A stretch of 64,000 bases of DNA from an uncultured Gammaproteobacteria bacterium (GTDB lineage: Bacteria; Pseudomonadota; Gammaproteobacteria; Thiotrichales; Thiotrichaceae): assembly GCA_963760355.1 (NCBI GenBank), contig CAVXCT010000034.1, forward strand, positions 1,311 to 65,310, read 5' to 3'. The first letter of the stretch is position 1; the number at the start of each line of letters is the position of its first letter. The notes under the pieces are model-generated. The model was not told the origin of the DNA, ran no database searches, and saw nothing but the letters and a program-made list of their open reading frames with translations. The position numbers and the translations under genes were made by a program. Shown here piece by piece: positions 8,607-62,853 of this stretch.

Positions 8607-8634
8607 ATTTAACATAATATAGATTATGCGTACT
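8607..8634 (-). other. dif site (XerC/XerD recombination site)
   Basis: Minus strand AGTACGCATAA-TCTATA-TTATGTTAAAT versus E. coli dif GGTGCGCATAA-TGTATA-TTATGTTAAAT; XerD arm identical. Confidence 0.9.
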
Positions 8635-24787: not shown

Positions 24788-25019
24788 AAAAATGGCCTAT
24801 AAGTAGGGGGGTGGCTTTATCTAGAATAAGCGTCTGACCCTGATCGAGTATTAAACATCGAAGATTCCTTGCCGAATCTACGATGGTCTTTTCTGGCTCT
24901 TGGTGAACGTTAAATCAAAATACTTTTGATGTTGAAATATTATTAGTAGATTAACGACTATTGCACAGCGGCTTTAGCTAAGTTTGGTAAAGCCACTCCC
25001 CTACTTTTAAGCAGTTTTT
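24788..25019. repeat. REPIN-like doublet (inverted arms) with internal modules B and D
   Basis: GTAG at 24803 and CTAC at 25001 on inverted arms; internals match 43881-43960 and 29972-30084; between convergent maeA and recR. Confidence 0.85.
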
Positions 25020-28230: not shown

Positions 28231-28345
28231 GGAGGTGACCCACACCAGCTACACCTCGGCACCCGAATCCACTACTACCGTTGCTCCCTTCCGGGCCTGG
28301 CGGGGTTCGCAGTTTATCGTCGCGAGGGAACCAATGTGAGTCTCC
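28231..28345 (-). ncRNA. ffs: Signal recognition particle 4.5S RNA
   Basis: Minus strand contains gccaggcccggaagggagcaacgg (SRP domain IV) in a long hairpin closed by ggag...ctcc; ffs-dnaX synteny. Confidence 0.92.
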
Positions 28346-29904: not shown

Positions 29905-30151
29905 AGCTGGGTGGCTTTATAATTATGGTCACCCCACTACTTCTATGAGGTTTTTTAATCTCATATCCGGTTACTTTTGATGTTGAAAAATTGTTAGTCG
30001 ATTATCGACCAATGTACAACGACAATTCCGTGAGGAATCTACGATGAACTTTTCTGGCTCTTGATGAGCCTAGAAAAGCCACCCTCAGACTTCGTGCCGT
30101 CGTCACTGTGTACAACGTTGTCTACGCTGCGCTTCGGATAAGCCATTTTTA
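29905..30151 (+). repeat. Composite REP-like element (mini doublet, hairpin, modules D and B, degenerate arm, 3' half of module C)
   Basis: 30005-30084 matches 43881-43960 at 68/80 nt; 29972-30021 matches 24921-24970 at 42/50 nt; 3' end taagccattttt overlaps the nagZ stop. Confidence 0.85.
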
Positions 30152-43830: not shown

Positions 43831-43835
43831 ATGCA

Positions 43836-43981
43836 TATAAGTAGGGGTGGCAATAAATTTATATTGGCATTTTATTTAGCTCGATCATTGTACATCGACG
43901 GTTCCTAACGGAATCTACTATGTACTTTTCTGGCTCTTGGTGAGCCTAGAAAAGCCACCCCCCTACTTTTAGCCTGTTTTT
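43836..43981. repeat. REPIN-like doublet with module B
   Basis: GTAG at 43841 and CTAC at 43963 on inverted arms; two internal hairpins (43890-43925, 43925-43954); between convergent prc and dgkA. Confidence 0.88.
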
Positions 43982-48959: not shown

Positions 48960-49212
48960 AAAAAAAAGGGGCGGCAGATTCTATGATCTGCCGCCCCCTC
49001 TGTCCTTGTACCTGAGAGAGTCCCTAAATCTACTAATAAATCTGTAATTTAGGTTAAACCCTTCGGTGGAAACTTTGTTTCACTCTCCAGAGTCAGTGTT
49101 TTTTTCTGCAGTCCTTTTACCTGAGCGTTTCCGAGCGGATTTGCGCCTTCGGTGTTCGACATCTTTAAAGTTAACCCTTAGCTAACTTAATGTTTGCCGA
49201 ATCTCTCCTGCA
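48960..49212 (-). promoter_or_regulatory. Tandem glycine riboswitch with terminator expression platform
   Basis: Aptamer 1 ggagag...caccgaaggcgcaa...ctcaggt; aptamer 2 ctctggagag...caccgaagg...ctctcaggt...acagag; then ggggcggcagat/atctgccgcccc plus T-run upstream of gcvT. Confidence 0.95.
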
Positions 49213-49282
49213 TAAAATTTAACTGAATTTTGAACTATACCTCAGCTTGAGTTAATGAGAAAGTAATTTAATAGATAACAAA

Positions 49283-62824: not shown

Positions 62825-62853
62825 AAAAGTGGCTATAAGTAGGGGGGTGTCAA
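62824..62853 (-). repeat. REP-like arm
   Basis: aaaaagtggctataagtaggggggtgtcaa directly after the ppnP stop. Confidence 0.85.

Follow-up and report, generated by a model that had tools for sequence, protein, structure and literature searches.

A BIME/BOX-like mosaic family of paired hairpins beside a GTAG-G6 end motif in the genus Cocleimonas

The intergenic DNA of some members of the genus Cocleimonas contains a genuine, abundant and structured block of two neighbouring hairpins, module B, which is part of an undescribed mosaic repeat family of the REP/BIME/BOX type. From the comparisons presented here, module B is on balance probably the two-hairpin section that stands beside the end motif of a BIME/BOX-like mosaic family found in part of Cocleimonas only, and it would behave as a REP-like repeat at the level of the DNA. 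On the strand used in the preliminary description of this DNA, the order of the parts is a first hairpin (H1), an optional insert (M2) with or without a further nested module, a second hairpin (H2) and the end motif, and one to three of these units are chained by a linker (linker D). The literature on Cocleimonas repeats, on orientation bias of REP sequences and on the end motif itself was searched and nothing relevant was found. Mosaic repeats of the REP/BIME type have been elucidated in a handful of model bacteria, and the RAYT enzyme is thought to drive them. The family described here is a rich modular one, with nested inserts and tandem units, present in genomes without RAYT.

The window, that is, the whole stretch of 64,000 nucleotides that was analysed, corresponds to positions 1311-65310 of contig C34 in a Cocleimonas genome of 3.67 Mb and 40.3% G+C (G000). 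An inventory based on an iterated nhmmer profile revealed 131 distinct H1 loci in this genome, many more than chance would give, and the reversed-pattern control for H1 gave 0 matches in 41 of the 41 genomes searched. The preliminary description had recognised a module common to three loci of the window; all three copies are found at the positions given for them and are grouped as one family by a repeat finder, but they represent a small part of the 131 loci, so that the family is far from being limited to three copies. H2 follows H1 directly in 61 loci, which is the arrangement originally described as module B, M2 lies between the two hairpins in 62, and 8 loci are organised otherwise. The M2 insert (~55 nt) is located between GGACTTT and TTCTGGCTC and may hold a further nested module of ~60-86 nt. 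Downstream of H2 there is always either the C-rich arm GCCACCCCCCTAC or, within arrays, linker D and the next H1.

The H1 units are distributed in 103 arrays (78 single, 22 double and 3 triple), within which they are direct repeats on one strand. The 25 arrays with two or three units have periods of ~109, 165 and 225-233 nt. The spacing between H1 and the arm is also discrete, being 76 nt in 33 loci, 133 nt in 17 and ~190-200 nt in 9. Inserts and linkers of fixed length give these array periods, and for this reason the internal tandem build-up that had been proposed by analogy with BIMEs is real. At least 10 module B units end as GCCAC/TTTT..., lacking exactly 8 nt (CCCCCTAC) of the arm, and the N5 before their T run differs each time; these units are at C21:37903, C27:17205, C33:68579, C40:18575, C41:15816, C41:32737, C41:68984, C41:151530, C42:43696 and C13:23975. 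Besides, the contig pairs C2/C8, C6/C17, C20/C23 and C18/C25 share near-identical repeat-bearing segments with identical flanks, which are either assembly redundancy or recent duplications, and copy counts are slightly inflated by them.

H1 is an imperfect hairpin with the sequence CATCG-AC-GATTCC-TTRY-GGAATC-TA-CGATG and two more outer pairs beyond an A.G mismatch, and H2 reads CTTTTCT-GGCTC-TTGGT-GAGCC-T-AGAAAAG. The twin inner hairpins proposed in the preliminary description are well sustained by explicit pair counts: standard pairs occupy 93.5% of the 1209 pair cells of H1 (93 distinct copies), a proportion that drops to 25-45% if the 3' partners are displaced by 1-3 columns, and H2 is paired at 94.5% (38 distinct copies). 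One pair of H1 covaries (A-U in 60 copies, G-C in 27, others in 6) and the remaining pairs vary little, while H2 has three pairs with compensatory two-sided changes and few intermediates. Since the copies are ~90% identical to their consensus, this covariation is modest evidence and partly a subfamily signal; it consists mostly of a few subfamily-level changes, and it supports selection on structure modestly. Composite loci fold with z values of -4.75 and -4.93, and none of 200 shuffles was as good. The internal loop AC/TA of H1, an unpaired 2x2 loop, is conserved at 89-95%, which equals the conservation of the stems.

The three loci of the window, A, B and C, are all described on the forward strand. 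Locus A opens at 24788-24815 with A5 (24788-24792), the N5 TGGCC and the G-rich arm TATAAGTAGGGGGGTGGC, whose GTAG is at 24803-24806; the same arm is found at the orthologous site of two other genomes of the genus, G018 and G011. A variable spacer X (24816-24843), which is unlike between loci and is not conserved among copies, leads to the H1 module (24844-24892; nhmmer match 24843-24892, E 1.3e-12), with the hairpin at 24856-24885, the loop TTGC at 24869-24872, a lower stem CATCG/CGATG, an internal loop AA/TA and an apical stem GATTCC/CGAATC. It is followed by H2' (24888-24908), an H2 that has its 5' half and apex (CTTTTCTGGCTCTTGGTGAAC) but lacks the closing 3' half, a form that precedes linker D inside arrays, where this linker joins H2' to the next H1. 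The segment 24909-24970 contains linker D (~24909-24952) and a second H1 that is truncated to its 5' foot (24953-24970). A second partial unit had been reported at 24921-24970; the repeat finder recovers it too, and its match to 29972-30021 (42 of 50 nt) stands, but it corresponds to linker D plus this truncated foot and includes no second hairpin pair. The right end (24970-25019) is made up of a variant apical hairpin, GGCTTTAGC-TAAGTTTG-GTAAAGCC, the C-rich arm GCCACTCCCCTACTTTTA (24992-25009), the N5 AGCAG and T5 (25015-25019), and its outer stem pairs with 24788-24820.

Locus B begins with a mini-doublet (29908-29959) that ends in the ancestral C-rich arm (GGTCACCCCACTACTTCTATGAGG) and a T run. 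Linker D, a repeat-finder family, is located at 29971-30003, and the H1 module at 30004-30053 (hairpin 30017-30046, loop GTGA 30030-30033, nhmmer E 5.7e-14); the segment 30049-30092 comprises the H2 hairpin (30049-30078) and then the degenerate arm GCCACCCTCAGACTT. In locus C, a degenerate G-rich arm, CATATAAGTAGGGGTGGC (43834-43851), and a variable spacer X, which together cover 43834-43880, precede the H1 module (43881-43929; hairpin 43893-43922, loop TAAC 43906-43909, nhmmer E 5.2e-14). The segment 43925-43981 completes this locus with the H2 hairpin (43925-43954), the C-rich arm GCCACCCCCCTACTTTTA (43954-43971), the N5 GCCTG and T5 (43977-43981). A direct count between the copies starting at 30005 and 43881 gives 68 identities over 80 nt, and among the 12 mismatched positions are all four of the loop (26-29), in agreement with the figures previously reported.

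The H2 stem-loop abuts the end motif, GCCACCCCCCTAC (reverse complement GTAGGGGGGTGGC), and the closing end of the unit reads GCCACCCCCCTACTTTTA-N5-TTTTT on the strand of the preliminary description. The bracketing motif AAGTAGGGGGGTG is present in 390 exact copies and in 962 copies when up to two mismatches are allowed. Most arms are solo, with the consensus AAAAA-N5-TAAAAGTAGGGGGGTG-N3-TTT, and only ~39-42 facing pairs are found among 747-962 arms. Arms are mostly extragenic (21 of 397 inside ORF calls), although this and the other gene-context statistics rest on crude longest-ORF gene calls. On the G-rich strand the arm reads GTAGGGGGG, GTGG-C stands before H2, and GTAG (CTAC on the opposite strand, that of the preliminary description) spans the 2x2 internal loop of H1 with each base 93-95% conserved; every unit therefore bears a head of the REP style, GT[AG]G. 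A hairpin hidden in the solo arms was considered and rejected, because the variable N5 of these arms does not covary with the positions that follow GTG (mutual information of 0.05 bits at most).

The most unusual aspect of the family lies outside the coordinates first flagged, in the arm itself, whose co-orientation with replication is as strong as that of KOPS and which persists at orthologous sites in different species. Of 332 G-rich arms, 277 (83%) are on the G>C strand, and the canonical KOPS GGGNAGGG has a similar skew (70 of 83, 84%); the E. coli Chi octamer, tried as a local polar signal, reaches a skew of 59% only. Where the neighbouring genes are in tandem, 126 of 150 arms follow the direction of replication, irrespective of the strand of the genes: arms are co-oriented with the genes in 78 of 94 leading-strand contexts and opposed to them in 48 of 56 lagging-strand contexts. 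H1 shares the polarity of the arm in 75% of loci. The density of end motifs is approximately one per 5-9 kb, and in one 1.3-Mb contig of C. flava 98 of the first 100 sites, among the matches listed, are on one strand. Related to this, the window includes a dif-like site (8607-8634) at which the cumulative GC skew peaks; its reverse complement resembles E. coli dif. To the left of this site the arms are G-rich on the forward strand (2607, 3661 and 8243) and to the right they are C-rich on it (9973, 10446, 17611, 20287, 28061, 29930, 37658, 43956, 55687 and 61378), the exceptions on the right being doublet partners and one solo arm at 62839.

The distribution of the two components is different. 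An exact-pattern scan of ~185,000 species genomes found the exact H1 core only in C. flava DSM 24830, an uncultured Cocleimonas and two MAGs, and within the genus H1 is present in 5 of 25 genomes; arms are abundant (at least 61 exact copies) in 12 of the 25. The window is fully collinear with C2:108241-175957 of C. flava (G011), at 71-83% identity, and the coding DNA of the two genomes is ~77% identical. In this stretch 15 of 16 arm sites are kept in the same orientation, although the intergenic DNA outside them fails to align; the end motif is therefore old, with both its position and its sequence conserved. On the other hand, no H1 is detectable in the syntenic C. flava stretch, and all three copies of the window are absent or vestigial there, with outgroups that have solo arms only. 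The orthologues of locus A are short doublets in G018 (60 nt) and G011 (45 nt) and solo arms in G002 and G012, and those of locus B are solo C-rich arms in G011 and G018. At locus C a solo C-rich arm is found in G002, G012 and G020, which indicates that the arm is ancestral at this site, and G018 and G011 have an H2-like hairpin and a degenerate H1 in the inverse arrangement. In G010 (contig C81) a run of ~100 N masks the intergenic region orthologous to locus C. Given the solo arms of the outgroups, the most parsimonious reading of the three loci, each compared with two or three outgroups, is a gain or rearrangement, in the G000 lineage, at arms that were already there.

Seven of ten H1 sites of other species have H1 in the collinear interval of G000. 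Besides, one orthologous doublet can be aligned over its full length between G000 and C. flava, and both copies have the arm variant GGTG/CACC; the mean column identity is 83% (~75% over the shared 153 nt), and the flanks are 76-82% identical. These sites display vertical inheritance mixed with gain or loss at orthologous positions, and H1 modules turn over faster than end-motif sites. Copies that are ~10% away from the consensus, and one orthologous pair that is ~20-25% apart, roughly fit an amplification around the species split followed by mostly vertical decay, while local gains, losses and changes in the number of units continued.

The mechanism that we propose is that of a REP-like hairpin repeat acting as DNA, which would be recognised by its sequence as well as by its shape, given that conservation in the unpaired internal loop and in the flanks is as high as in the stems. 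Its amplification would have taken place before or around the split of these Cocleimonas species, and the later history may be one of copying, expansion and loss of modules at GTAG-G6 sites that already existed. No enzyme is encoded nearby, and the driver would probably be copying coupled to replication, recombination between the end motifs that the units have in common, or an enzyme acting in trans. Doublets with facing arms constitute long inverted repeats bracketed by A5 and T5; complete doublets fold with a long outer stem that includes A5 and T5 (z ~-4.8), so that between convergent genes they would be expected to behave as bidirectional terminators or as 3' stabilisers.

A role at the RNA level has to be weighed against this mechanism, in which case H1 and H2 would be 3'-UTR hairpins that terminate transcription or shield mRNA from 3' exonucleases and are kept by selection on the transcripts. 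REP/BIME hairpins at 3' ends in E. coli have been shown to terminate or protect the upstream mRNA. In Cocleimonas the repeats are intergenic, the hairpins are stable, many sites are positionally conserved between species, the H1 loops of the G-rich strand are mostly GYAA, a GNRA-type tetraloop, the doublets form a long stem between A5 and T5, and convergent genes flank 117 of 369 arms (32%), an enrichment over the 15% of all intergenic regions. However, orientation tracks replication and not the flanking genes, unpaired positions are as conserved as the stems and module content varies at orthologous sites. Mismatches of the G.T and A.C types are symmetric (26 versus 37 in H1, 9 versus 10 in H2), and the strand-specific tolerance of wobble pairs that would mark an RNA is consequently rejected. 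No T run is found directly after H1 or H2, and a terminator consensus scan of locus A finds none. A search of Rfam 15 gave no match at gathering or E-value thresholds, and the only hit is a long hairpin matched by chance (E 0.59, 22.8 bits versus a gathering threshold of 211). The symmetric mismatches, the lack of Rfam matches and of T runs, and the polarity with replication favour a DNA-level element, and the RNA reading is unlikely, although it keeps some weight.

Two other possibilities concern the arms. The GTAG-G6 end motif may be a domesticated, non-selfish signal of chromosome polarity, of which the module B hairpins would be REP-like passengers that use the arms as landing pads; candidate roles are the orientation of FtsK/RecBCD-like machines or the halting of transcription that runs head-on to replication. 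The density of the arms, their presence on the leading strand in at least 83% of cases, the flip at dif, the 15 of 16 shared sites and the lack of RAYT can be cited for this proposal, which we consider quite unlikely as it stands; if true, a REP-type family would be working without RAYT and tied to the direction of replication. In the second possibility, the hairpins would be an array bound by protein as double-stranded DNA: a dimeric DNA-binding or nucleoid protein would recognise the 6-N4-6 palindrome, GATTCC-N4-GGAATC, together with its flanks, and these sites would be accessory to polar GTAG-G6 sites with a KOPS/Chi-like function of their own, oriented with replication or segregation. The sequence-level conservation, including the internal loop and the CATTGTAC flank, is consistent with such an array, and so are the skew of the arms (83% versus 84% for KOPS), their change of orientation at dif and the sites shared with C. 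flava. Nevertheless, no candidate protein was found, and the presence of H1 in 5 of 25 genomes, compared with abundant arms in 12, means that H1 is absent from most arm-bearing genomes and is therefore not essential to the function of the arm. IHF had been suggested among the possible binders, but its consensus WATCAANNNNTTR is not found inside the three window loci (there are 11 occurrences in the window versus 7.9 expected). A protein-binding array is improbable.

A RAYT had also been suggested among the possible binders. In the classical view, the repeat would be a REP/REPIN moved by RAYT, or a MITE/PATE moved by a resident IS200/IS605 transposase. The GT[AG]G heads beside imperfect palindromes, the leading-strand bias, which is expected if single-stranded DNA is what inserts, and 13 Y1_Tnp matches in G000 would agree with this view. 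The genome and the genus were searched with PF01797 and with the RAYT model NF047646 (cut-off 80 bits), and no cognate RAYT was found: NF047646 gave nothing over the cut-off in eight arm-rich genomes (G000, G011, G004, G002, G012, G024, G020 and G010), and PF01797 had no match at all in G011, which is 100% complete and contains 735 arms and 31 H1. The Y1 genes of G000 score 146-148 bits on the IS200 model versus 27-29 bits on the RAYT model, which points to IS200/IS605 and not to RAYT, and the end hairpins of these elements are unrelated to the module B family. The RAYTs that do exist in the genus (G018:C26, G023, G021 and G005) have another REP at their flanks, GTAGGT[CT]GGATAA...CCGACCTAC. 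No transposase recurs beside 96 H1 sites, where the recurring genes belong to common paralogous families only (response regulator, ABC ATPase, LysR and binding protein). As for target sites, no duplication was seen and no consistent direct duplication lies beside the doublets, whose arms are inverted over at least 16 nt and whose A5/T5 flanks are also inverted, not direct. The distal junctions of the module are heterogeneous, and recombination or decay would fit them as well as transposition. Mobilisation by RAYT or as a MITE thus appears largely refuted for the known families, and it is very improbable.

The IS200/IS605 elements of G000 are of two kinds, each with its own end hairpins. The best-scoring copies are at C25:22337, C28:4073, C29:45704 and C31:79680, three of them open and that of C29 with a stop, and degraded copies are found in C8, C12, C16, C17 and C35. 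The second REP, which flanks the RAYTs, is enterobacterial-like (GTAGGTCGGATAA...TTATCCGACCTAC), and ~10 relics of it are present in G000, which has no RAYT.

The apical loop of H1 had been presented as hypervariable and completely different between copies, a claim that does not hold for the genome. Over the 131 copies the loop composition is T (95%), T (85%), R (A 48%, G 41%) and Y (C 68%, T 23%), that is, a TTRY consensus; TTGC (42), TTAC (28) and TTAT (11) account for 81 of the 122 scorable loops (66%), and TTRY loops predominate also in four other Cocleimonas genomes. The three loops of the window were poor representatives, as one is the consensus loop TTGC and the two others are rare outliers, GTGA being unique in the genome and TAAC being found twice. 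The entropies of the four positions are 0.33, 0.71, 1.23 and 1.20 bits versus ~0.4 in stem columns, so no column of the hairpin varies more than loop positions 3 and 4. The loop is the least constrained part of the hairpin, relaxed yet non-random. A loop deliberately diversified to carry specificity, as the three different loops of the window and the variability of positions 3 and 4 could suggest, is hardly credible when two thirds of the loops are of three kinds, four further genomes have the same consensus and the variation fits relaxed constraint on unpaired bases.

Several known repeat systems resemble this mosaic family. BIMEs are mosaics built from REP/PU units in E. coli and Salmonella, and the likeness includes extragenic palindromic units with GT[AG]G-type heads, few linkers of fixed length, a variable number of units, and orthologous intergenic sites whose composition differs between related species. 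However, the H1 units are organised head-to-tail whereas the units of BIMEs alternate in inverted orientation, there is neither an IHF motif in the linkers nor a cognate RAYT nor sequence similarity, and the end motif is a mostly solo, non-palindromic site of 16-25 nt strongly co-oriented with replication. BIMEs are further characterised by IHF sites in the linker of the BIME-1/RIP type and by the binding of gyrase or Pol I. BOX elements of Streptococcus pneumoniae have the structure boxA-boxB(n)-boxC; they are also modular, with a variable tandem internal unit, strong predicted structure, no transposase of their own and restriction to one lineage. They differ in phylum and sequence, and in the Cocleimonas family there are nested inserts (M2 and a further module) and an anchorage to a polar end motif that is conserved.

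REPIN/RAYT systems share with the family the GTAG head, the hairpin, the extragenic location, the hundreds of copies and the occasional inverted doublets. Nevertheless, most of the genomes that carry the family have no RAYT, and those RAYTs that the genus does possess pair with another class of REP; besides, solo arms exceed doublets by ~10:1 or more, whereas the main unit of REPINs is the inverted doublet. The head and the extragenic copies are those of a REP/RAYT family, but by the lack of a cognate enzyme in the genomes searched the family falls outside it. The IS200/IS605-derived PATEs and MITEs (e.g. Correia) are likewise non-coding, with hairpin-rich ends, a replication-strand bias of the kind described for single-strand transposition and, comparable to the doublets, terminal inverted repeats. 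In this case the differences are that the ends are unlike those of the resident IS200/IS605, that no target-site duplication is seen, and that the arms are ancient and positionally conserved, not recent insertions.

C. flava DSM 24830 is culturable and would constitute a system for the study of mosaic growth without a dedicated transposase; it would also be suitable for asking whether REP-like sequences become replication-polar signals of the chromosome. From the point of view of annotation, the ~100 structured intergenic arrays of the genome should not be taken for sRNA genes or CRISPR-like features. Structured RNAs are also found in the window, on the reverse strand: an SRP RNA at 28240-28336 (69 bits) and a glycine riboswitch aptamer at 49099-49220 (63 bits).
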